The notes beneath the pieces are model-generated. The model saw nothing but the letters and a program-made list of their open reading frames with translations, was not told where the DNA came from and made no database searches. 50,445 bases of DNA, from IMG/VR virus record IMGVR_UViG_3300030339_000005, one strand, 5' to 3'. This DNA comes from a virus (Duplodnaviria; Heunggongvirae; Uroviricota; Caudoviricetes). This document shows, piece by piece, positions 28,017 through 41,948 of this stretch. Both the position numbers and the translations under genes were made by a program. Position 1 is the first letter of the stretch, and each line of letters begins with the position of its first letter.

Positions 28017-28222
28017 CTATTACTACTGAATTTTCAGTTCCTGACTCTGTTTTTGTTCTAAATGGACAAGTTCGCCAAGGCGAAGTTGCAGAAGTTAAAG
28101 TTTCTTCATCAGCTAATAAACAAATCGTTACTTATATGGTAAAGATTGGAGAAAATGATTATGCTCTTGTTGATGAGAATCGTATTGGTAAAACAAAAGA
28201 AGAATTATTGAAAAAATTATGA
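28013..28222 (+). CDS. Small SH3-like protein
   Basis: ORF ending TKEELL; ATGA overlap. Confidence 0.6.
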   Translation: MTITTEFSVPDSVFVLNGQVRQGEVAEVKVSSSANKQIVTYMVKIGENDYALVDENRIGKTKEELLKKL

Positions 28223-28935
28223 GTAAAGTAAGAATCTGCGCAATCAGTGATATGCATGGAATTTTACCTGAAAATATTGAACCTTGTGATATTTTATTTA
28301 TTGGTGGGGATATTAGTCCATTTGACATACAGTTAAATATGTTAGCTATGCGAGAATGGATCACTACGACCTTCGCATACTGGATTAATAGTCTACCAGT
28401 AGATAAAGTATACCTAGTACCTGGAAATCATGATTTCTATTTTCAAGGACTAGCGAGATATAAGTTACTCGAGTTTTTACAAAGTACTCACTTTAAAGTG
28501 TGTGTTTTAGAAAATGAATCGGCTTTATATAGATGTGAGGATGGGTCCAGGATAAGTATCTTTGGAACACCTTATTGTCATATATTTGGTAGATGGGCTT
28601 ATATGAGGGCGCCTGATTATTTAAAAGAGGCTTTTTCTGAAATTCCTGAAGAAGTGGATATTATTCTAGCACATGATGCACCTTTTAATGTAGGTGGACA
28701 AGATGTTATGACTGAATTACCACGACATAGAGAACAACCTGGGCATATTGGCAACCCGGAACTAGCTGAGAGGCTGGGCCAAATAAAATATAAATGGTTA
28801 ATACATGGCCATATTCATAGCTCTGAACATATTCCAGAAGAATTCAATGGGGGTTTAGTAGTAAACGTAAGTTTAATGAATGAAGAATGTAGCGATCTTA
28901 TTTACGAACCTTTTTATTTCGAATTTGAGACATGA
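28219..28935 (+). CDS. Calcineurin-like metallophosphoesterase
   Basis: SDMHG, GGDI, GNHD, GHIH. Confidence 0.9.
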   Translation: MSKVRICAISDMHGILPENIEPCDILFIGGDISPFDIQLNMLAMREWITTTFAYWINSLPVDKVYLVPGNHDFYFQGLARYKLLEFLQSTHFKVCVLENESALYRCEDGSRISIFGTPYCHIFGRWAYMRAPDYLKEAFSEIPEEVDIILAHDAPFNVGGQDVMTELPRHREQPGHIGNPELAERLGQIKYKWLIHGHIHSSEHIPEEFNGGLVVNVSLMNEECSDLIYEPFYFEFET

Positions 28936-28953
28936 AACACATTAATTTTATAA

Positions 28954-29550
28954 ATGATGAATAGGACTTGGATAATGAGCGATACTCATTATGGACATAT
29001 AAACATCTGTTATGGTACCTCTCGTTGGAAAGATAAAGAAGTATCATGTCATCGCTTTAACACTGTTGAAGAGATGAATGATGCCATTGTAAAATCTATC
29101 AATGATGTAGTAGATCAAACAGATATAATCTATTTCTTAGGAGATTGGTCTATGTCTGGTGTTGAGAACATCTATAAATTTTTCTCACGCTTAATTTGCA
29201 AGAATATTTTCTTTGTTCCTGGAAATCATGATGAGCATATAATTAAAAATCATCTAAGTTTGGGCATAGCTCCAGAAGATATGTTTCATATTCTTCCAGA
29301 GTTATATACTTTGTATTATCGTGGTTATAAATTTATTTTATCTCATTATCCTATTGAACAGTGGAAAGATATGGGTAAGGGAGCTATTCATTTACATGGG
29401 CATACGCATCATGTTCTTGATAAGTCAGTAGATAATACTAAATACAAACGAATGGATGTTGGGTGGAAACCTACTGGTCCATGGCTTCTTGATGATATCA
29501 TTGAAATAATGGATAAACGGGAAGTTAAACAACATTGTGAGAATGATTGA
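28954..29550 (+). CDS. Calcineurin-like metallophosphoesterase
   Basis: SDTHYGH, LGDW, GNHD, HYP, HGHTH. Confidence 0.9.
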   Translation: MMNRTWIMSDTHYGHINICYGTSRWKDKEVSCHRFNTVEEMNDAIVKSINDVVDQTDIIYFLGDWSMSGVENIYKFFSRLICKNIFFVPGNHDEHIIKNHLSLGIAPEDMFHILPELYTLYYRGYKFILSHYPIEQWKDMGKGAIHLHGHTHHVLDKSVDNTKYKRMDVGWKPTGPWLLDDIIEIMDKREVKQHCEND

Positions 29551-29938
29551 AATTTATGCTGATGGTGCTTATTCTTCTTCGAGAGATCGAGGAGGATGGG
29601 CATTTGTTGTAGTAAAGGATGGAGTTAAAATACATTCAACTTTTTATCCGATAGATAGTACCACAAATAATAGGATGGAAATACAAGCAGCAATTGAAGC
29701 CTGTGCTTGGGCTAAGTTAAATGGATATAGTGATATAACTGTTTATACTGACTCTATGTATGTCATTGGGACAATGACATTAAATTGGAAACGCAAGAAA
29801 AACCATGATCTTTGGGCTCTATTAGACCCTTTGGCAAATGAGCTTAATATTACATGGACACATGTAAGAGGCCATAGTGGAGATAAATATAACGAATTAT
29901 GTGATGCACTAGCTGTATCCGCAACTCACGCAAATTAA
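29537..29938 (+). CDS. rnhA: Ribonuclease HI
   Basis: YADGA, TTNNRME, TDSMYV, HVRGHSG...NE..D.LA. Confidence 0.93.
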   Translation: MRMIEIYADGAYSSSRDRGGWAFVVVKDGVKIHSTFYPIDSTTNNRMEIQAAIEACAWAKLNGYSDITVYTDSMYVIGTMTLNWKRKKNHDLWALLDPLANELNITWTHVRGHSGDKYNELCDALAVSATHAN

Positions 29939-29943
29939 ACCTT

Positions 29944-30504
29944 ATGATAAGAACCATTGTAGAAGAAAGAACTAAGAATGTAGCCGTAATGGATGTCTTC
30001 TCTAAATTAATTCAGGAACGAATTATATTTATTGATGAGGAGATAGACTCAGAATTAGCTAACGGTGTTATTGCCCAAATGATTTATTTAGATTCCGTAG
30101 ATAGTAAGAAACCAATTAATGTTTATATTAATACTCCAGGTGGTAGTGTATACGATGGATTAGCAATATATGATATTAGTAGACTAATTAAAGCACCAAT
30201 TCGTACTGTTAGTATGGGATTAGTTGCATCTATGGGAATTATTTTAATGCTTATGGGGACAGAAAGATGTGCAACAAAAAATTGTGCATTTATGATTCAT
30301 CAGCCATCGACTATGGCATATGGTCCAGCAGCAGATATTGAAATTACTGCTAAGATGATTATTTCATTGAAGGAAAAAATGTTTCAGATAATCTCTGAAC
30401 ATACTGGACAACCGGCTGATAAAATTAAAACTGATGCGGAGCGTGATTATTGGCTAAGTGTTGATGAGGCTAAAGAGTATGGACTTATAACAAAGATTCT
30501 ATAA
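29944..30504 (+). CDS. clpP: ATP-dependent Clp protease proteolytic subunit
   Basis: YINTPGG, GLVASMG (Ser), MIHQP (His), ERDYW (Asp). Confidence 0.93.
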   Translation: MIRTIVEERTKNVAVMDVFSKLIQERIIFIDEEIDSELANGVIAQMIYLDSVDSKKPINVYINTPGGSVYDGLAIYDISRLIKAPIRTVSMGLVASMGIILMLMGTERCATKNCAFMIHQPSTMAYGPAADIEITAKMIISLKEKMFQIISEHTGQPADKIKTDAERDYWLSVDEAKEYGLITKIL

Positions 30505-30505
30505 A

Positions 30506-30829
30506 ATGGCCACAGCATTACCAGAATACACTACATATATAAAGAATGGACAAACTGTATTGGTTGATTCATCTCATCTATTTGTGTATCAAACCTGCGT
30601 TTATGCTTTTTACAAAGGATACTTTTCTCTTTGTAATTCACAGTTTTATTCTTGTCATAAAGAAATCCAAGGAGTTGTGGGCTCCTTTTTTAAAACACCA
30701 CATATCCAGATTTGCTCAGAGCTGTTCGCAGCTCCAGAAAAATGGTTAATAGATAATGAGTATGTGATATACTCACGACCTGAAAAGATAAGCAAAGTTA
30801 AACACAACATTGAAGGTAATGACGGATAG
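30506..30829 (+). CDS. Hypothetical protein
   Basis: ORF. Confidence 0.5.
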   Translation: MATALPEYTTYIKNGQTVLVDSSHLFVYQTCVYAFYKGYFSLCNSQFYSCHKEIQGVVGSFFKTPHIQICSELFAAPEKWLIDNEYVIYSRPEKISKVKHNIEGNDG

Positions 30830-31328
30830 AAAATTATCACTCATAAGTCCTCAAATCGGTGAACTGCTTGTAAAACAAATTGCACATGAGTTAAAGAATT
30901 TTAGTCTTTATATGAGTTATGCAAATTATTTTTCTGTAGATGGAATAACTGATCTTGAAGAATATTACAGAAAACGCGCACATGAAGAATTAAATCACCA
31001 TCAATGGATTATGGACTATTTGTCTGATGGTGATTATGCATTTATATATCCTGCTGTCGAGCAAAACTCAGAAAAAATTACCAGTCAAATGGTACCTTTT
31101 GGTCAAACAGTTGTAAGAGAAATTCAAACAACTCAATTGCTATATGCTATATATGAAGCCTCTCTTGCAGAAAAAGATTATATGACAGCATCTTGGTTAT
31201 ATGAAAAATTAATCAAGGAGCAAATTGAAGAGGAAAATACGAGTAGGATGGCTGTAACAATTATGGAAGAGGAAACTCGTAACATTTTTGATAAAGCTGA
31301 GAGTGTACTTGAACTATTAGAATCTTAA
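30819..31328 (+). CDS. Ferritin-like protein
   Basis: QI.HE..Y, EE..H, E, EQ.EEE ferroxidase ligands. Confidence 0.85.
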   Translation: MTDRKLSLISPQIGELLVKQIAHELKNFSLYMSYANYFSVDGITDLEEYYRKRAHEELNHHQWIMDYLSDGDYAFIYPAVEQNSEKITSQMVPFGQTVVREIQTTQLLYAIYEASLAEKDYMTASWLYEKLIKEQIEEENTSRMAVTIMEEETRNIFDKAESVLELLES

Positions 31329-32933: not shown

Positions 32934-34907
32934 ATGATTTACTTAGTAAGTAATCAGACTAATGCTTTTGGAGGAGAATTCACACAGATACCTCTTTTAG
33001 AAGCAATAGAAATGTTATCACATATTCAGTTTATTGGTGCAGATACCGAAACTGAAGGTCTAGATTGTTTTACTAAGAAGCTTTTAACTGTTCAATTAGG
33101 AAATGCTGAATTTCAAGTTGTTTTCGATATAGCATCGTATGAGGGTAAGATCCCTCAAGAATTAAAGTTTTTTCTAAATAACTTCGATGGGACGTTTATC
33201 CTGCAAAACGCAAAGTTTGATTTAAAATTCTTATATCGGCAAGGAGTTGTCTTGAAACATGTTTATGACACCATGTTAGTAGAGACTATTCTAACCATTG
33301 GATTACAGATGGCCGGTAGAGACTTAAAGACACTTTGTGAAAAGTATTGTCAAGTAGAACTTGACAAATCTATTCGAGGAGAAATAATTACAAAAGGGCT
33401 AAATGCCGCAGTTATTAGATATGCAGCATATGATGTTGTGTATTTAGAAGATATAATGACTAAACAAATGAGACAAGTCAACCACTTGCGTTTAAATAAC
33501 GCAGTCATACTTGATAATGAGTTTGTCAAAGTGTTAGCATATATCGAATATTGCGGAATTAAGCTTGATTGGAAAACATGGAAAGAAAAATCTTTAAGAG
33601 ACTTAGAAGTAGTCGCAGCAAAGAAGGAGGCTTTAGATGGATGGTTGTATGATCATAAACTAATGAAATATTTTAGTGGAATGCAAGATCTCTTTACAGG
33701 AAGAATGGATTGTATTCTGAACTGGAACTCTCCTTTACAAGTTGTAGAATTATTTGAATCTTTAGGGATTAACTGTACAACAGTTGATAAGGGAGTGTCT
33801 AAGAAAACAGCAGAAGAAAAAGCAATTGGGAAATATAAAGACCAATATCCTATTCTAAAATTATACTTTGAGTATAAAGCTGCTGTAAAATTAACATCAA
33901 CTTATGGATTAACTTGGGAAAGTATGATCAATCCGGTTACTCATAGAATTCATACAACCTTTCAGCAGATAATGAATACTGGAAGGTTATCGAGTGGTAA
34001 CATGAGAGAAAATAAACCTAATCTTCAAAATCTTCCTTCAGACCATTTAACCAGAGGTTGCTTTATTTCTGAAAAGGGATATAAGTATATTGCCGCTGAT
34101 TATTGTGCGCAGGAATCTATAATTCTGGCAGATTTCTCACAAGATGAGAGTCTGCTAGCATTTTATAGAAAGGGCTTTGAGGATATGCACAGCTATGTGA
34201 CTTTTCTTCTATTTCCAGAAGTACGAAGGTGCGCCCTCGACGATCTAACCAATGAGGAATTAATTTGGATTAAGAAGAATTTTAAGGAAAAGCGAAATAT
34301 TGCTAAAACTGCAGAGTTTGCAATTAACTATGGAGGTAATGGTAGTACTATCGCAAAAAACACAGGACAGAGTAAACAACAAGGAGAATTCGTCTATAAA
34401 AGTTATTTTGATGCCTTTTATAATTTAAAGACATATTATGACGTAGGTATGCAACAAGTAGAAAGGGATCACTATATCCTCTTTAATAATGTAACTGGTA
34501 GAAAATTGTTCTTTGGAGCAGAAGAGCCTTTTATAAAATATAAAGAAGATGTAGCAGATCCTTTCTTTTGGCAACGTCCAGATGCGAGAAGCATTCATGG
34601 TGAGTATACTAAAAGTAGATCTGAGGTACAGAGAAAGTCTCAGAATTATCGAATTCAAGGATCAGCAGCGGATTGTTCGAAATTAGCTGGCGTGATGTTT
34701 TTTAATCAACTAATTCAGCGTGGACTATTATTTACTGTGAAAATAGTAAATATGGTTCACGATGAATTTAATGTTGAAGCTCCTGACGAAATAGCAGAAG
34801 AAATGTCAGATTTACTAATTAAATGTATGTCAAAAGCTGGAGATCAATTTTGTAAAACAGTGCCTTTAACTGCAGAAGCAGAGATTGGTGATCATTGGAT
34901 ACATTAA
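32934..34907 (+). CDS. polA: Family A DNA polymerase (3'-5' exonuclease plus polymerase)
   Basis: DTETEG, NAKFD, YAAYDV, TGRLSS..PNLQN, ADYCAQE, R..AK...F...YG, IQGSAAD, VHDE. Confidence 0.95.
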   Translation: MIYLVSNQTNAFGGEFTQIPLLEAIEMLSHIQFIGADTETEGLDCFTKKLLTVQLGNAEFQVVFDIASYEGKIPQELKFFLNNFDGTFILQNAKFDLKFLYRQGVVLKHVYDTMLVETILTIGLQMAGRDLKTLCEKYCQVELDKSIRGEIITKGLNAAVIRYAAYDVVYLEDIMTKQMRQVNHLRLNNAVILDNEFVKVLAYIEYCGIKLDWKTWKEKSLRDLEVVAAKKEALDGWLYDHKLMKYFSGMQDLFTGRMDCILNWNSPLQVVELFESLGINCTTVDKGVSKKTAEEKAIGKYKDQYPILKLYFEYKAAVKLTSTYGLTWESMINPVTHRIHTTFQQIMNTGRLSSGNMRENKPNLQNLPSDHLTRGCFISEKGYKYIAADYCAQESIILADFSQDESLLAFYRKGFEDMHSYVTFLLFPEVRRCALDDLTNEELIWIKKNFKEKRNIAKTAEFAINYGGNGSTIAKNTGQSKQQGEFVYKSYFDAFYNLKTYYDVGMQQVERDHYILFNNVTGRKLFFGAEEPFIKYKEDVADPFFWQRPDARSIHGEYTKSRSEVQRKSQNYRIQGSAADCSKLAGVMFFNQLIQRGLLFTVKIVNMVHDEFNVEAPDEIAEEMSDLLIKCMSKAGDQFCKTVPLTAEAEIGDHWIH

Positions 34908-35143
34908 TGAAAACAAAAAAGAAAGTGAAAAAATTATACGAAATTGGAGCTGAAGTTTGGATTACACCAATTGACGGCGATCCAAGAGCAGCAAAAGTCG
35001 TAGGATATATTGATTATCCACGCGTTATCCCTATTGTTGAATTTATGGGCAAAACTGGTACTCTAGTAAAGAATTCTTTTGATTATGCAAGAATTTGTCA
35101 TTACAATGATAGACCAGAACATGAACTTTTTGAAAATGGATAA
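34907..35143 (+). CDS. Small SH3-like protein (paralog of next)
   Basis: Y.IG..VWI.P....PR.A...GY...YNDRP. Confidence 0.6.
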   Translation: MKTKKKVKKLYEIGAEVWITPIDGDPRAAKVVGYIDYPRVIPIVEFMGKTGTLVKNSFDYARICHYNDRPEHELFENG

Positions 35144-35351
35144 TCAATATTTAATAGGTGAAGTTGTGTGGATCCGCCCCTCCAATGCAACACCGAGAGA
35201 AGCAACAATTAAAGGTTATGATCCAACTGACGGAGTCCCTCTGATAAGATATCAAGGGGATAATGGAGAGTGGCATGAGAGTAGATTCTCTACTTTACTC
35301 ATGAGTACTTATAATGACCGACCAGATATTGATGAAAATATTAACGGTTAG
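35136..35351 (+). CDS. Small SH3-like protein
   Basis: Same motif as the previous gene. Confidence 0.6.
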   Translation: MDNQYLIGEVVWIRPSNATPREATIKGYDPTDGVPLIRYQGDNGEWHESRFSTLLMSTYNDRPDIDENING

Positions 35352-35353
35352 TT

Positions 35354-35833
35354 ATGAAAACTATAAGAAACGGTGTTTTTGAGACCAATAGCTCATCTTC
35401 ACATTCAATTTCTATTGGACCTTACGAAGAAGTACAATCCCTAAGGTGGGAATCAGTTTTTGAAATAGAGGAAGGAAAGGCTATTTTATACCCAGGAAAA
35501 TTAAGCACACATGTTAAGTATCTAGGAGAAGCTTCACAGACAAGATGTGAAACTTTATTTGATAAGTTAGCAATGGTTGTTAATTGGCTCCAGGGCCTTA
35601 GAGATGACTCTTGGTTAACTTTAGATGAATTTGATATCGCTATTCTTAGAATTAAGGAAGATTTTGAGCTTGATGATATTGTGTTTAGTACTTATTCTGA
35701 TTATTATCCATATTCTGAATATGGTGATAATCCATTTTCTAGGGAAGAGAATTTTCAGGAAGACTTCGAAGGCCTACTAAAAGTCGTACGAGATAATACT
35801 CAAGTAATCATTGATGAAGACATTCCAAACTAA
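35354..35833 (+). CDS. FETNSSS-motif protein 1
   Basis: N-terminus MKTIRNGVFETNSSSSHSISI. Confidence 0.75.
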   Translation: MKTIRNGVFETNSSSSHSISIGPYEEVQSLRWESVFEIEEGKAILYPGKLSTHVKYLGEASQTRCETLFDKLAMVVNWLQGLRDDSWLTLDEFDIAILRIKEDFELDDIVFSTYSDYYPYSEYGDNPFSREENFQEDFEGLLKVVRDNTQVIIDEDIPN

Positions 35834-36219
35834 TGAAGATAATATGTAGAAGCATATTTGAAACTAATAGTTCGTCAACTCATAGTACAACCATTATGAC
35901 TGTTGAGGATTATCAAGAATGGAAAAAAGACATCTTGTGTTATGATGAAGATAGTCACAAACTTATTACTAAAGAAGAACGTCTAGCAATGGCTAGAGAG
36001 AGTTATGAGAAATATCAAGTTCATTCTAGTCCAAATACTATTCCAGACGTAATTACTGATGAGCAAATTGAAGCTCATATTGAAGAAGAGTTAGATGAAT
36101 TTCCACAAACTTATTCAGACTATAAAGCTATTGCAGGAGATTATGAAACTGATACAAATCAATTTACTACTCCTGGCGGTGAAGAAATTATAGTCCTTTG
36201 TTATTACGGTTATAATTAA
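35833..36219 (+). CDS. FETNSSS-motif protein 2
   Basis: N-terminus MKIICRSIFETNSSSTHSTTI. Confidence 0.75.
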   Translation: MKIICRSIFETNSSSTHSTTIMTVEDYQEWKKDILCYDEDSHKLITKEERLAMARESYEKYQVHSSPNTIPDVITDEQIEAHIEEELDEFPQTYSDYKAIAGDYETDTNQFTTPGGEEIIVLCYYGYN

Positions 36220-36229
36220 ACCAAATTAC

Positions 36230-36655
36230 ATGAAAACAATTAGATACAACATTTTTGAAACAAATAGTTCTTCTTCTCACTCTATTACTGTGAGTCGAAG
36301 TGGTAATTATGTAAATGATTCTCTTTTTCCAGAGCCTAATTCAGCTGAACCAGTAATTCTCTTAGATGGTGGTAATTTTGGTTGGGGTGTGGATGTGTTT
36401 ACAGATTCAAATACAAAAGCAAATTATTGTGCTATTGATTTTGCTGCAAATGATGAGCCGATTAAACTTATACTTTTACAGAAAGTTATTGAGGATATGA
36501 CTGGCTGTAATGTAGTAATTGATTTAGACGATTTTTCTCATATTGATCACCAAAGTATTGGAACAGCTGATGATGAACTTATGGATTATCAGGATATAAA
36601 GGACTTCGTCTTTAATCCTGAATCAGAGTTGCTCATTGATAATGATAATCATTAA
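36230..36655 (+). CDS. FETNSSS-motif protein 3
   Basis: N-terminus MKTIRYNIFETNSSSSHSITV. Confidence 0.75.
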   Translation: MKTIRYNIFETNSSSSHSITVSRSGNYVNDSLFPEPNSAEPVILLDGGNFGWGVDVFTDSNTKANYCAIDFAANDEPIKLILLQKVIEDMTGCNVVIDLDDFSHIDHQSIGTADDELMDYQDIKDFVFNPESELLIDNDNH

Positions 36656-36667
36656 AAGATAAAACAA

Positions 36668-37558
36668 ATGGAATTACTTTATAAATATCAAAATGGAAAT
36701 GTTCTCGTTTCTATTTTTGATGATGGAACAAAAATACAAGAGTGGCCTGATGACGAAGCTCCAGCTCCCATTTATCCGAATTCAATGGATGTTAAGATTA
36801 CAAATAAATGTAACTTAGGTTGTAAATTTTGTCATGAAATGTCTGTTCCTGATGGAAAACATGCAGATCTTAGTGATTTGCTTGAGATTCTTGAGGATCT
36901 TCCAGCTGGTACAGAATTAGCTTTGGGTGGTGGTAATCCACTTGAACATCCTTGGCTTAAGTCATTTCTTATGGTTTGTCAAGATTGGGAATTTATTCCA
37001 AATCTTACAGTTAATGGTAAGCATGTTGAAAAATATGCTGACTTACTCAATACTTTGATTGACGAAAGGTTAATCTATGGCTTGGGTGTGTCTATTGAAG
37101 ATGACTTTGATTTTGCTATTATGGATAAAATCCATAATGTATCTAATGTTGTTTATCATGTTATAGCTGGTGTAAATGATTATACCATTCTAGACAAAAT
37201 AAAGGACAGGATGGGCAAGGTATTGGTCTTAGGATACAAAGATGTTGGCAGAGGCATAACTAATCATTCTGAACTTACTGATGTACTTCAGAGTGAGTGG
37301 TTTGGTCATATCAAACTTTATATTCATAGACTCCACATGTCTTTTGATAACCTAGCGGTTAAGCAATTAGACATTAAATCTTATTTATCTCCGGAAGAAT
37401 GGGATGAATTCTATATGGGAACTGACGGACAGTTTACTATGTATATAGATGCTGTTAGTCAAGAGTTTGCAGTTTCTTCTACTTCAGTAACTCGTTATCC
37501 ACTAAAAGGAACTATTGAGGAAATTTTCTCGAAAGTTCAAAGTGAACCAAAAAATTAA
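36668..37558 (+). CDS. Radical SAM enzyme
   Basis: CNLGCKFC (CxxxCxxC), GGGNP, TVNG. Confidence 0.9.
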   Translation: MELLYKYQNGNVLVSIFDDGTKIQEWPDDEAPAPIYPNSMDVKITNKCNLGCKFCHEMSVPDGKHADLSDLLEILEDLPAGTELALGGGNPLEHPWLKSFLMVCQDWEFIPNLTVNGKHVEKYADLLNTLIDERLIYGLGVSIEDDFDFAIMDKIHNVSNVVYHVIAGVNDYTILDKIKDRMGKVLVLGYKDVGRGITNHSELTDVLQSEWFGHIKLYIHRLHMSFDNLAVKQLDIKSYLSPEEWDEFYMGTDGQFTMYIDAVSQEFAVSSTSVTRYPLKGTIEEIFSKVQSEPKN

Positions 37559-37627
37559 CACAAAAAATTTGGTAAAGTCAGAAAAAATGCTTATCTTGTA
37601 GTATAATTCTAAAGTAAAAAATAAGAA

Positions 37628-38278
37628 ATGAAACAAGGTTTAATCTATAAATACACTTCACCAAGTGGTAAAAGTTACATCGGGCAAACATCTGATGAAA
37701 ATTGACGAATGAAGTGTCATAAAAGTTCAAATTGTAAGACTAAGTTTAATTCTGCCATTAAAAAGTATGGTTTTGAAAATTTTACATATGAAATTTTATT
37801 TAAAACTTCTTTTACCAAAGATTTGGAAAAATTAAAAGATGTGCTTAATCAAATGGAAATTGCCTTTATTGAATATTATAATTCATTTAATAATGGTTAT
37901 AATCTAACTAAAGGTAGGGAGGGTGCATTAGGAGTTAAGTTATCGCAAGACGCTTTGGAAAAGTGTAAGAATACTAGACGACTTAAAAATCCAACATGAG
38001 GTGATAAATTACTAGTCATTGATGCTACTATAAAAAGAGAGGCAGCTAACATTAGACGCCAAGAGAAATTACGGCAGTTAGAAAAACGAAGACGACCTCG
38101 TATTTTACAATATGATTTAAATTTTAACTTAATTACGAAATGACAAACTCTTTCTGATATTAACAAATGCTTAGGTCTTTGTGAAAATGGAATTAGAACT
38201 TGTTGTCGAGAAAAGAGACTTAATTATAAGAGTTATATTTGGAGATACGAAGAAAAAGAAAAGAATGAGAAACTATAA
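37628..38278 (+). CDS. GIY-YIG homing endonuclease with three in-frame TGA (37703, 37997, 38141)
   Basis: GLIYKYTSPSGKSYIGQT...KYGFENF...E..FI..Y.S..NGYNLT.G; NUMOD-like ILQYDL...ITK*QTL...YIWRY. Confidence 0.8.
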
Positions 38279-38555
38279 AGTAGAACGACTTCTAAATGGA
38301 GAATCTTTCATTACTTCTGAAAAAGGAAACTCAATGCTTCCTATAATCAAATCAGGTCAGGAACACAAATTATCACCGGCTCAATGGGAAACTGTTGAAG
38401 TCGGTGATGTTGTCTACTGCAAAGTCAGAGGTAATTACTACACGCATTTAGTAAAAGCAAAAAATAATGATCGTGGTTGTCTAATTGGCAATAATCATGG
38501 TCATCTAAACGGTTGGACAAAAGCTGTTTATGGTAAAGTAACAGAAATATTATGA
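38265..38555 (+). CDS. S24/S26 peptidase-like protein
   Basis: GNSMLP.I.SG, VGDVVYCKV, THLV. Confidence 0.7.
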   Translation: MRNYKVERLLNGESFITSEKGNSMLPIIKSGQEHKLSPAQWETVEVGDVVYCKVRGNYYTHLVKAKNNDRGCLIGNNHGHLNGWTKAVYGKVTEIL

Positions 38556-38719
38556 GAAGACAATCAGGATATTATTGGGTAAAAAATCCAGATCCTATAG
38601 CATGGACCATTGCTTATTGGAATGAATCATTAGGTTGGTGGGTTGGTGATTTTGAATCAAAAAAATTAGATGATTATTGGTTAATCATTGACGAAAGACA
38701 AATTGTCCATCGTGAATAG
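38552..38719 (+). CDS. Small Trp-rich protein (not in ORF track)
   Basis: MRRQSGYYWVK...; six Trp, all TGG; ATGA overlap. Confidence 0.6.
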   Translation: MRRQSGYYWVKNPDPIAWTIAYWNESLGWWVGDFESKKLDDYWLIIDERQIVHRE

Positions 38720-38730
38720 AATCTTTATAA

Positions 38731-38826
38731 ATGACACTTGACAGAACTGAGCGACAAAACTTAGGAGTTAAGCGTTGGATACAAGCTGGTTGTAGAGGAA
38801 CTCTACAATGGTGTACAGGCGTTGGT
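38731..38826 (+). CDS. SF2 (DEAD-like) helicase exon 1
   Basis: MTLDRTERQ...WCTGVG; joins exon 2 to form Walker A TGVG|KT. Confidence 0.85.
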
Positions 38827-38919
38827 ATCATTAAAAATGATATAAATTAAATTAAGATAGTATCAGGATAAAAATCAATGTATGTCGTATATTTTAGATT
38901 TTATGTGCAATAAAAATAT

Positions 38920-38927
38920 TACCTTTG
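38920..38927 (+). promoter_or_regulatory. -7 promoter box inside intron
   Basis: TACCTTTG upstream of ATG 38952. Confidence 0.6.
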
Positions 38928-38951
38928 TGTAATATAATAAAAATATAAAAT

Positions 38952-39821
38952 ATGGGAAAAAGACACGAACAAAGAATTTATGATGAATTAGCTACTAAAT
39001 ATTTAGTAGAAGGATTTAGTTTGATAGAATTATCAAAACAATCAGGAATAGATAGAAGAACATTATCTACTAATTTTAAAAGTATGGGAATTAAAATAGT
39101 TAATAAACAAAATTTAACTAAATTTGATGAACATATATTTGATGAAATAGATAATGAAGAAAAAGCATATTGGTTAGGATTTATTTTTGCAGATGGTTAT
39201 ATATCAAGTTCAAGTAATAATTTTGAATTATCTCTTGGAATAAAAGATATAAATCATTTAGAAAAATTTTCACAATTTATGAAATATGTTGGACAAATAA
39301 AACAAGATTCTTATAGATGTAGATTTTCATTGAGAAATAAACATTTATGGAATATATTAAATAATTATGGTTGTACTCCTAAAAAATCATTAACTTTAAA
39401 ATTTCCAAATATAAATATCTTTAAATCTGAGGATTTAATAAGACATTTTATAAGAGGATATTTTGACGGAGATGGTTGTATTACATATCAAAAAGATACT
39501 TATTTTGTAAGTGCTGTTTGTTCTGTAATTGGTACTCCTGAATTTTTAAGTAAATTTGAACAATTATTAAATTTTGAAAAAGAAATTACTAAGTGTAAAG
39601 ATAAAAGACGAACTAATAATACAATTAGTTTATCTTTTAAAAGATCCGAGTCATTAACATTAATGATGTACTTATATGAAAATTCTTCTATTTATCTAGA
39701 AAGAAAATTTAAATTATATTCATTTTTTAAAAATGGATGCCGTTCATTAGAGGAATTTAGTGAATTATTATTGACCAATATCGGGGAAAGCTGTGATGCC
39801 AATCCCGAGATAAATGATTAG
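38952..39821 (+). CDS. Intron-encoded LAGLIDADG homing endonuclease
   Basis: YWLGFIFADG and FIRGYFDGDG. Confidence 0.9.
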   Translation: MGKRHEQRIYDELATKYLVEGFSLIELSKQSGIDRRTLSTNFKSMGIKIVNKQNLTKFDEHIFDEIDNEEKAYWLGFIFADGYISSSSNNFELSLGIKDINHLEKFSQFMKYVGQIKQDSYRCRFSLRNKHLWNILNNYGCTPKKSLTLKFPNINIFKSEDLIRHFIRGYFDGDGCITYQKDTYFVSAVCSVIGTPEFLSKFEQLLNFEKEITKCKDKRRTNNTISLSFKRSESLTLMMYLYENSSIYLERKFKLYSFFKNGCRSLEEFSELLLTNIGESCDANPEIND

Positions 39822-39979
39822 ATTACGAAAGGCTAATCATCATCGTAACGCGTAGGAGATGAATAAATATAATTCTCCCAAGAGTGGTTAACATCCAGAA
39901 CGGATGAAAAGGTACGCTGGTCTTATACAAAATAGAAGTATAAGAAGTTAAGATAAAAAGCTTAACGATAACAAAAACG

Positions 39980-41116
39980 AAAACGCGTGCTGCATTAACA
40001 GCAATTAAAGGTTTTTTAGCAAAAAACCAAAACAAGATTATTAAGGTTGTTGTACCTACTGAGCATTTAAAAATTCAGTGGATGCAAGAGCTTTCCAAGT
40101 ATGGATTACTTCAAGATGTTAGTGTCGAGATTATTAATTCAGCCATTAAAAATACAAATTCAATAGACTTTTTAGTCTTGGATGAGTGTCATAGAATTCC
40201 TTCTGATACTTTTTATGCTGTCTTTAATCAAAGACAACCTAAGATTGTATTAGGACTTTCAGCAACATTTAGTAGATTAGATGGTCGCCATGAATTACTT
40301 AACAGATTTTGCCCAGTATGTGATGTTATCCATATAGGTGAAGCAATTGAGAATGAATGGTTAGCCCCTTATAGAGAGTATAAAGTTATTATAGAGCCGG
40401 ATGATATTGAAACTTATCGAGAGATAAACCGTCAATTTCATGAGGCTTTTGCTATCTTTAATTTTGACTTTAAGTTGGCTATGGATTGTGTAACTAATAT
40501 CATATCACGAAGAGTGTATGGTAAAAAGTTAGGAATGGCTGTCTCTGATATGGATGGAGTAGTTTTTACTTGGAGTCGTTGTTTAAAAGCTCGAAAAGCT
40601 TATGTAATGAACCATCAGAAAAAAATTGATATTGCGAGAAGAATCATTGAGGCTAGACCCAATGAAAAGATTATTACTTTCTCTGCAACAATTGCCCAGT
40701 CTGAGAAGATAGGGAGTGGTTATGTTGTGAATTCTGGAAAAACTAAAAAGAAAAACAGAATCACAATGCAAGAATTTGCAAAGTTAAATCGCGGTGTAAT
40801 TCATACTGCAAAAAGTCTTGATGAAGGGTCAGATGTACCTGGATTGAATACTGCAATAGTACTTTGTAATACATCTTCTCAAACTCAAAAGACACAACGA
40901 ATTGGTCGTGTTATTAGATTTGAAAAGAATAAAAAAGCAGAAATTTTTACTCTTGTAATAAAGGGAACAATGGAGGAAGGATGGTTTAACACATCTACAG
41001 CAGGAAACAACTACATAGAGATTACCGAGTCAGAATTAGATGAAGTACTATCTGGACATGTGTCAACTAACTTAGAACAAGAAGCTAAGGAGGTTGGAAT
41101 AATGTTTAGATTCTAA
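39980..41116 (+). CDS. SF2 helicase exon 2
   Basis: KTRAA...VVVPT, DECH, LSAT, LDEG.DVP, QRIGRVIR. Confidence 0.88.
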   Translation, partial: KTRAALTAIKGFLAKNQNKIIKVVVPTEHLKIQWMQELSKYGLLQDVSVEIINSAIKNTNSIDFLVLDECHRIPSDTFYAVFNQRQPKIVLGLSATFSRLDGRHELLNRFCPVCDVIHIGEAIENEWLAPYREYKVIIEPDDIETYREINRQFHEAFAIFNFDFKLAMDCVTNIISRRVYGKKLGMAVSDMDGVVFTWSRCLKARKAYVMNHQKKIDIARRIIEARPNEKIITFSATIAQSEKIGSGYVVNSGKTKKKNRITMQEFAKLNRGVIHTAKSLDEGSDVPGLNTAIVLCNTSSQTQKTQRIGRVIRFEKNKKAEIFTLVIKGTMEEGWFNTSTAGNNYIEITESELDEVLSGHVSTNLEQEAKEVGIMFRF

Positions 41117-41126
41117 ATTTTATTTT

Positions 41127-41321
41127 ATGATATCAGAAAAAATGTTAGAACTGTTAACGCTTGTGCACATCTTGGATTGCTGTGCAAGTATTACGTCAGC
41201 TGAATATAACAGTTTGAAAGAACGTTATAAGATGCTAAGAGATGAATTTATTAAAGAACAATTACAGTACCCCATTATTAAAAATCCCGTAACGGATATT
41301 AAAAGCGATGAATGTAGCTAA
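41127..41321 (+). CDS. Hypothetical protein
   Basis: ORF. Confidence 0.45.
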   Translation: MISEKMLELLTLVHILDCCASITSAEYNSLKERYKMLRDEFIKEQLQYPIIKNPVTDIKSDECS

Positions 41322-41333
41322 AACCTACAATGC

Positions 41334-41948
41334 ATGCAGCATTTTGAATTATCTTTGCAAGAAGAAATTAATATATACATTAATAGTGGATTAACTCCCA
41401 CAGAATTATTTGTATTAAGATTACTTCTCTTAGCTGTAGATGATGAACCTAAATATTTAGTTAATTATATCTCGAATGTTCGAGAAGGAAAGGCTATTTT
41501 TAGACAGGTTCTTGAATCTCTAAAAGAGAAGAAAGTTATACTCTCGAGTTTTAAAGTTCCCTGTGAAGGTGAGACTTTAAATTATAAAAATATACCCTTT
41601 AATAAGAATTTTATGAAGTCGTACATTCGAGAATCCAATGAGATTGGTAAAGAGTTATTTGATGCATATCCTCCGTTTATTAATATAAATGGTAAGTTAT
41701 GTAGCATTAAAAATTTTACAAAAGCCAATTTATATTCCTTTGAAGAATTTTGTTTATATTATGGAAAAGCTATTAAAAATGCTAGTGCTACTCACGAAAG
41801 AGTGATAGAAGCATTAGAATTTGGCAAAGAAAATAATTTAATTAATTATTCAATAATTGAATTTATTGCTTCCCGAAAGTGGGAAGAAATTGAATATATT
41901 CAAGGTAGTGGAAATATTAATGGGTATAACAATTCTGAACTACTATAA
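41334..41948 (+). CDS. Putative replication initiator or helicase loader
   Basis: ELFDAYP; coupled to DnaB-like gene. Confidence 0.55.
   Translation: MQHFELSLQEEINIYINSGLTPTELFVLRLLLLAVDDEPKYLVNYISNVREGKAIFRQVLESLKEKKVILSSFKVPCEGETLNYKNIPFNKNFMKSYIRESNEIGKELFDAYPPFININGKLCSIKNFTKANLYSFEEFCLYYGKAIKNASATHERVIEALEFGKENNLINYSIIEFIASRKWEEIEYIQGSGNINGYNNSELL

Follow-up and report, generated by a model that had tools for sequence, protein, structure and literature searches.

The question raised by this locus is what ties a radical S-adenosylmethionine (SAM) enzyme of a tailed phage to the three small proteins encoded directly upstream of it, all of which open with the same serine-rich motif. The four genes lie in a 50,445-nucleotide window (the whole stretch analysed here, bases 8980-59424 of the IMG/VR phage record IMGVR_UViG_3300030339_000005, which is complete at 178,320 bp), and we refer to the three proteins as W1, W2 and W3 and to their common N-terminal segment as the tag. 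The genes are packed tightly, as an earlier note made from the sequence of this window had remarked: W1 and W2 overlap by 1 nt, and gaps of 10 nt and 12 nt separate W2 from W3 and W3 from the enzyme gene, respectively. The same note had proposed that the four proteins represent a phage post-translational modification system. We find that the link between enzyme and tag is close to obligate and that the two families form a self-contained phage module, in which the enzyme may, with a probability that we put at about one in two, recognise the tag and modify it by radical chemistry.

The N-termini of W1, W2 and W3 read MKTIRNGVFETNSSSSHS, MKIICRSIFETNSSSTHS and MKTIRYNIFETNSSSSHS, respectively, and all conform to the pattern MK(T/I)I..(V/I)FETNSSS(S/T)HS. 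The phenylalanine is residue 9 in each, which bears out the earlier observation that the motif stands at an identical distance from Met1. Translated in all six frames, the window contains the string ETNSSS exactly three times, compared to a mean of 0.005 in 200 codon shuffles, and W1, W2 and W3 are also its only matches across the 178,320-bp genome. Within the tag, the codons vary synonymously among the three genes (ACC, ACT or ACA for threonine; AGC, AGT, TCA, TCG or TCT for serine; CAT or CAC for histidine), indicating that selection acts on the peptide and arguing against recent gene conversion. The family consensus is (I/V)-R-x-x-(V/I/T)-F-E-T-N-S-S-S-x-H-S, in which R(-4), F, E, T, N, the three serines and H(+8) are conserved at ~100% across paralogues, and this sole element common to all partners contains no glycine. 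A profile of the tag only, searched against 1.84 billion proteins as representatives clustered at 50% identity, retrieved 7,409 such representatives, and the tag starts at residues 1-4 in ~143 of the best 150 profile matches. Its carriers are phages of bacteria from many phyla, plus some contigs binned to archaea. A variant from Rhodothermus phage RM378, L-S-T-N-S-S-S-S-H-S, narrows the invariant core to T-N-S-S-S-x-H-S. Full-text literature searches for 'ETNSSS', and for 'TNSSS' together with 'radical SAM', found no paper. W1, W2 and W3 are thus members of a provisional and unnamed FETNSSS-tag family, which is recognised by the N-terminal tag and by an adjacent enzyme gene on the same strand.

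Evidence for a functional unit comes from the way in which the two families travel together. We collected 80 loci anchored on the tag from a tag scan of IMG/VR, and 80 loci anchored on the enzyme from the reverse scan. A homologue of the enzyme is encoded on the same strand in 75 of the 80 tag-anchored loci, mostly directly downstream of the tag genes, which number one to six per locus; of the five loci that deviate, two encode the enzyme at another place on the contig, and two are fragments with an estimated completeness of 38-41%. In the reverse direction, one or more tag genes accompany the enzyme in 78 of the 80 enzyme-anchored loci, without exception on the same strand and at a median gap of ~2 nt, and in one of the two exceptions the enzyme lies at the very end of the contig. 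The earlier suggestion of a phage system that joins tag proteins to this radical SAM clade is therefore upheld from both sides, and a common occurrence of motif proteins without the enzyme, named at the time as the observation that would speak against it, is not what the 80 tag-anchored loci reveal. All-against-all clustering of the neighbouring genes detected no third conserved gene family near the module, the next cluster being present in only 12 of 80 loci.

Contigs from genomes and metagenome-assembled genomes (MAGs) give a similar picture: the enzyme is found in 55 of 75 tag loci, or in 32 of 40 when loci with full flanks are considered, and a single enzyme is accompanied by one to ten tagged paralogues, with up to ten at one locus. 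The largest array that we saw, on contigs binned to Prevotella and Fibrobacter MAGs (L124/L135), has ten tag paralogues in a single locus, along with one strong enzyme homologue and a second, weak radical SAM match. Tag domain and enzyme are also fused, and in both orders. In P0155 the enzyme is followed by the tag domain, the tag hence being internal, and in P0162, P0164 and P0171 the tag domain precedes the enzyme. The module is widespread in very different phages, and we found no description of it in the literature searched; the tag proteins are not represented by a family in Pfam or NCBIfam, and none of the sources examined annotates the two families as a pair.

What kind of enzyme is the constant partner of the tag? 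The superfamily assignment follows from its cluster motif, from a match to PF04055 of 32.9 bits (gathering threshold 29.5) and from structural matches to radical SAM proteins with Z scores of 11-20. It falls clearly within phrog_16999 ('Fe-S oxidoreductase'; E 3e-57) and belongs to a distinct clade for which this is the usual annotation. In an alignment of 55 family members, C48, C52 and C55 are invariant or 98% conserved, the first cysteine spacing of the cluster motif ranges from 3 to 13 residues, and 51 of 54 members have a histidine-glutamate pair after the third cysteine. None of the other cysteine columns exceeds 22%, and the one extra cysteine of the window enzyme is unconserved. Since no cysteine beyond the cluster three is conserved, the clade has no SPASM or twitch domain, and the absence of an evident SPASM domain, noted earlier for the single protein, extends to its family.

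The AlphaFold2 model of the enzyme, with a predicted local distance difference test (pLDDT) value of 95, places a three-stranded N-terminal beta domain ahead of the core. Foldseek ranks SuiB, GDGT-MAS, SkfB, CteB, BlsE, DesII and EpeE at the top. By VIA-align, the best structural matches are SkfB (PDB 6EFN; Z 20.4, root-mean-square deviation 3.2 Å over 262 residues, model residues 3-296) and SuiB (PDB 5V1Q/5V1T; Z 17.4-18.2, model residues 1-296), maturases of ribosomally synthesised and post-translationally modified peptides (RiPPs) that align from the first residues of the model, whereas the alignments with viperins, EpeE, PqqE and anSME (Z 14.6-16.5) start near model residue 34. The N-terminal domain is covered by the SkfB and SuiB superpositions only, and these two lead over the other structures because this region, the site of their recognition element, aligns as well. 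As judged from the model, the beta domain of the phage enzyme therefore seems to be placed like the peptide-recognition element of SkfB and SuiB. A further likeness is that SkfB and SuiB are each a single enzyme encoded beside a peptide or protein partner. Several features set them apart from the phage enzyme. In PDB sequences of other radical SAM enzymes, profile matches are limited to the first ~100 residues, and the sequence similarity to SkfB and SuiB is likewise confined to the first ~100 core residues (E 1e-5 to 1e-3); the phage clade has neither the SPASM/twitch cysteines nor, according to Pfam, a PqqD-like domain; and the phage partners, rather than being short precursor peptides, have a folded body and an N-terminal tag, with no protease or exporter linked to them.

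Two other groups of radical SAM enzymes are instructive by comparison. The sulfatase maturases anSME/AtsB (PDB 4K36-4K39), which match the phage enzyme structurally with Z 14.6-14.8, resemble it in that one enzyme attends to several folded clients sharing a short serine or cysteine motif near the N-terminus. However, the SPASM domain of anSME binds two auxiliary clusters and the client motif is (C/S)-x-(P/A)-x-R, whereas the phage enzyme is devoid of an auxiliary cluster, the motif is T-N-S-S-S-x-H, and the partners, having neither a PDB fold match nor a Pfam match, do not qualify as sulfatases. Viperin and its prokaryotic relative pVip are comparable in size, have a single cluster and superimpose with Z 15.5-16.5 over ~225-233 residues, but the sequence matches are restricted to the ~90 cluster-binding residues, the match to the viperin profile NF038283 reaches 22.8 bits where 180 are required, and PADLOC matches pVip at residues 42-129 only. 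Unlike the phage enzyme, viperins have no N-terminal beta domain and no obligate tagged partner. Radical SAM/SPASM genes have also been reported beside peptides that carry a C-terminal FxSxx motif (Kaur et al., 2020; PMC7159879). We set that system aside as different from the module.

The tagged partners are folded proteins of 90-300 residues and acidic throughout, with isoelectric points (pI) of ~4.3-4.7. W3 carries the canonical body, which we call type A: it has more than 230 full-length homologues, and W3-type bodies occur in 138 of 155 loci. Beyond the tag, this family shares the motifs GG.FGWG, with a near-invariant G-W-G, TKANY, IDHQS and a C-terminal IDNDNH, and its invariant residues are F9, E10, T11, N12, S13-15, H17, Y66, D106, H107, S109, F128 and N140. 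In the AlphaFold2 monomer model of W3 (pLDDT 90.7), tag residues 15-20 already belong to the fold, as its first beta-strand, and the value drops to ~50 for residues 1-10, low confidence that suggests an exposed N-terminal segment. The fold itself resembles nothing that we compared it to: Foldseek of the model against the PDB gave no match with E <0.8, VIA-align, run over 48,161 chains, did not exceed Z 2.6 and identified no matching fold, a profile search of PDB sequences yielded chance matches only, and BFVD returned only uncharacterised relatives together with one 461-residue radical SAM fusion. Searches of Pfam, NCBIfam and PADLOC with W1, W2 and W3 produced nothing (a Csn2 match of W2 in PADLOC, E 0.007, was weak and was disregarded), and PHROGs offered only families of unknown function, among them phrog_28997, which W3 matches weakly but over its full length (E 3e-5). 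For neither phrog_28997 nor phrog_16999, the families of W3 and of the enzyme, is there a functional description. A Pfam scan of 49 long tag proteins likewise found no meaningful domain.

The W2 body, type B, is laid out as tag, W-K-x-G-E-L helix, acidic linker and a C-terminal ..TTPxGxxxVxFGxYGYD(G) segment with an invariant glycine. With the tag removed it forms a separate conserved family, with homologues in 59 of 155 loci, and hhalign aligns the W2 family to the W3 family over the first 30 columns only, that is, over the tag. W1 has a mere six full-length relatives among the proteins found, is without the GWG, DHQS and NDN motifs, and contains neither the type A nor the type B glycine motif; it is collinear with the W3 family over 128 columns in hhalign, the tag supplying most of the score. 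On this alignment W1 has the appearance of a degenerate W3-type body and represents a rare subfamily. The earlier statement that the bodies are otherwise dissimilar thus stands for W2 against W3, where only the tag columns align, and does not stand in full for W1 against W3, which are partly collinear. The idea of the tag as a free leader on unrelated bodies is to be corrected, as the tag continues into the first strand of a folded domain and the bodies fall into a few conserved families.

Type A bodies are occasionally joined to other domains. The ESM Atlas contains a cluster of 261-residue viral proteins, 97% of which have a Tad2-like domain (PF11195), and this cluster aligns structurally to W3 (36230-36652) over 118 residues, with a template modelling (TM) score of 0.63 by query. 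It may represent a type A-like body fused to a Thoeris anti-defence sponge domain, a fusion unconfirmed in the loci that we examined. Two metagenomic proteins, each a single case, combine a type A body with a P-loop kinase (AAA_33) and an HD domain (P0161, 490 residues) or with an RMKL-like RNA methyltransferase domain (P0151, 427 residues), a hint of nucleotide or RNA chemistry.

Three carriers of the module are cultured phages: Microcystis phage Ma-LMM01, Rhodothermus phage RM378 and Salmonella phage Arash. The Ma-LMM01 run comprises gp130 (tag protein), gp129 and gp128 (enzyme), all of which belong to middle class B5 by RNA-seq, and its sole predicted promoter precedes gp130 (PMC5780444, supplementary file 4). 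These data show that the tag protein and the enzyme of Ma-LMM01 are expressed as one middle-phase unit. The start of gp129, the gene between them, has a G.RVW..P pattern, to which we return below. In the Lak megaphages, three tag paralogues come after the enzyme, and in RM378, the tag protein p106 (L246:6028-6798), which bears the variant tag given above, lies two genes downstream of the enzyme p108. In Arash, gp146c (OQ632216.1 84334-85764; L245:4431-5861) is a 476-residue fusion of a type A tag domain and the enzyme that is annotated 'methyltransferase'; its tag reads F-A-T-N-S-S-S-S-H-S and is the only tag in the Arash genome. The Arash paper does not discuss gp146. Homologues include Ma-LMM01 gp128, RM378 p108 and the Lak megaphage genes. 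A tblastn search of GenBank phages with W3 returned nothing, even though Ma-LMM01 gp130, the Lak phage proteins and RM378 p106 are homologues, probably owing to divergence and to the low-complexity filter.

How might the enzyme and the tag work together? If the enzyme is a maturase of the tagged proteins, it would bind the exposed N-terminal tag, cleave SAM to generate a 5'-deoxyadenosyl radical and abstract a hydrogen within T-N-S-S-S-x-H or from a residue adjacent to it, where a covalent change would be left. Because an auxiliary cluster is absent, a redox-neutral outcome such as epimerisation, rearrangement or adduct formation would be more likely, and oxidative cross-linking less so. The canonical W3-type partner would then probably have a new fold and act as a small enzyme or as a ligand-binding protein, with a function dependent on maturation, and W2 (type B) and W1 (degenerate type A) could be further clients or regulators. 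We favour maturation because one enzyme serves many mutually unalignable bodies, because the tag is kept perfectly on paralogues that have lost everything else, because the partner N-terminus is poorly ordered in the monomer model, and because the nearest structures are peptide-modifying enzymes whose match includes the recognition region. An invariant tag on unalignable bodies is consistent with a site that has to fit into one enzyme.

Several observations weigh against tag modification. The closest structural relatives all use the SPASM/twitch auxiliary clusters that this clade lacks, and an enzyme fused to its own protein substrate is unusual. That the sole tag of Arash is fused to the enzyme is explained by a two-domain enzyme no less well than by a maturase that has clients. 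Moreover, the canonical body has invariant polar residues of its own, so that the tag could belong to a joint active or binding site rather than being a substrate.

These points lead to the best-surviving alternative, a two-part or fused two-domain radical SAM enzyme in which the tagged domain is a permanent subunit and the tag a docking or active-site element, a possibility that we consider real but unlikely. The tag would then serve, for example, as a Ser/Thr/Asn/His-rich loop that binds phosphate or metal, the substrate would be a third molecule (a nucleotide, a nucleic acid or a small metabolite), and different paralogues would supply different specificities. Consistent with such an arrangement are the fusions in both orders and the presence in Arash of a fused tag domain only, the enzyme-like set of invariant residues in the canonical body (Y66, D106-H107-x-S109 and N138-D139-N140), and the continuation of the tag into the first beta-strand, with no separate linker. 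The genes also lie among replication genes, in the window between DNA polymerase A and a helicase and similarly in Ma-LMM01, contig L004 and RM378; bodies are in rare cases fused to P-loop kinase and HD domains or to an RNA-methylase-like domain; and the viperin-type nucleotide enzymes are structurally close (Z ~16.5). Against a permanent subunit, one enzyme can have up to ten paralogues, many of which are without any conserved body residue yet have a perfect tag, a pattern difficult to account for if the site in the body did the work. Type B, moreover, shares nothing detectable with type A except the tag, and no conserved third partner or substrate-related gene is found nearby.

An improbable alternative is that the enzyme is an activase that leaves a stable protein radical on its partner, in the manner of the glycyl-radical-enzyme activases and the radical carrier GrcA/YfiD. 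PflA and NrdG are, like the phage enzyme, small single-cluster proteins that act on a conserved segment of a partner, and the C-x2-C-H-E of the phage cluster region is close to the C-x2-C-H-N found at this position in pyruvate formate-lyase activase. The partners are small and acidic, type B ending in its invariant glycine and type A having its near-invariant G-W-G, and NrdG2 (TIGR02495) is the second-best NCBIfam match. However, that match scores 27.5 bits, far under the cut-off of 131, as the NCBIfam scores of this group are in general far below their cut-offs; the shared tag has no glycine, and W1 is without both glycine motifs. In addition, the module is found in phages whose hosts are oxygenic or aerobic (Microcystis, Rhodothermus) and in which an oxygen-sensitive radical would be short-lived.

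Self-processing of the tag, by cleavage at Asn-Ser or Ser-Ser to give a pyruvoyl or N-terminal-nucleophile enzyme while the radical SAM enzyme acts elsewhere in the pathway, is more improbable still. Asn-Ser and Ser-Ser bonds are autoprocessing sites in pyruvoyl enzymes and inteins, and the motif stands at a fixed short distance from Met1, but self-processing needs no partner enzyme, and the enzyme is almost never absent. Some fusions have the tag inside the chain or at the end far from the enzyme, and paralogues without other conserved residues would have no reason to retain an autoprocessing site. The least probable alternative, a RiPP-like pathway that would modify the tag as a leader or core peptide, cleave it off and release it as a small product, has in its favour that the nearest solved structures are RiPP maturases, but it is at odds with the lack of a conserved protease, transporter or other third gene nearby, with partners that are folded proteins of 90-300 residues, and with an invariant part that lies at the extreme N-terminus and continues into the fold.

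The coordinates of the four genes and of their principal sequence features are collected in the table below.

Table. Genes and sequence features of the tag-enzyme module, in window coordinates.
Feature	Position	Strand	Remarks
W1, tag protein, 159 aa	35354..35833	+	ATG start; pI ~4.3
W2, tag protein, 128 aa, type B body	35833..36219	+	ATG start
W3, tag protein, 141 aa, canonical type A body	36230..36655	+	ATG start
Radical SAM enzyme, 296 aa, single cluster site	36668..37558	+	PF04055; phrog_16999 member
W1 tag, residues 1-21	35354..35416	+	motif and codon comparison
W2 tag, residues 1-21	35833..35895	+	motif and codon comparison
W3 tag, residues 1-21	36230..36292	+	motif; AlphaFold2 model
Enzyme cluster motif C48-x3-C52-x2-C55, then conserved H56-E57	36809..36832	+	family alignment
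Enzyme N-terminal three-stranded beta domain, residues 1-35	36668..36772	+	AlphaFold2 model; Y7, N9, G10, G20 and T21 conserved

A promoter and terminator scan of the run from W1 to the enzyme gave signals no better than those of shuffled sequence, and an Rfam scan of 34000-41500 found nothing, including no group I intron. Directly upstream of W1, at 34895-35351, are two tandem small open reading frames (ORFs) of 82 and 90 codons, the products of which share a G.(E)VW..P....PR.A...GY pattern, similar to the start of Ma-LMM01 gp129, and look like paralogous small beta-barrel proteins. We considered these proteins, or gp129, as a conserved third component and rejected the idea: jackhmmer found no relatives in the 155 loci, and the 34895-35351 proteins therefore do not count among the conserved components of the module. 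On the other side, a 96-codon ORF without a Pfam match (37709-37999) and a LAGLIDADG endonuclease (38952-39821) separate the enzyme from a helicase ORF (40082-41116). The latter starts at motif II, matching ResIII profile positions 121-164 of 164 plus Helicase_C, and the N-terminal half of the helicase is therefore missing from the ORF; in the related jumbo contig L004, an intact 568-residue helicase directly follows the enzyme. Further upstream, a cluster at 28219-31328 encodes two calcineurin-like metallophosphoesterases (28219-28935 and 28954-29550), a ClpP protease (29944-30504) and a ferritin-like/rubrerythrin protein (30810-31328).

To our knowledge, radical SAM enzymes that mature whole proteins are few (the sulfatase maturases, the glycyl-radical activases and a few methylases and thiolases), and each of them has revealed new chemistry. 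Both the enzyme clade and the tag are extremely conserved. Neither the enzyme-tag pairing nor the tagged proteins have been functionally described in the literature that we searched. We tentatively propose, at somewhat less than even odds, that the enzyme installs a previously unknown radical modification in the T-N-S-S-S-x-H loop of folded proteins, for example a protein-derived cofactor or a D-residue that activates a family of enzymes with a new fold, and that phages as different as Salmonella myoviruses and Lak megaphages rely on a single maturase to arm varying sets of tagged effectors, which may act in counter-defence. Arash infects a laboratory strain of Salmonella, its gp146c provides a tractable laboratory model, and a system of one enzyme and one tag could serve as a tool. 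Knowing the reaction would give a large block of phage 'dark matter' a function and possibly uncover a new post-translational modification or a new enzyme fold.

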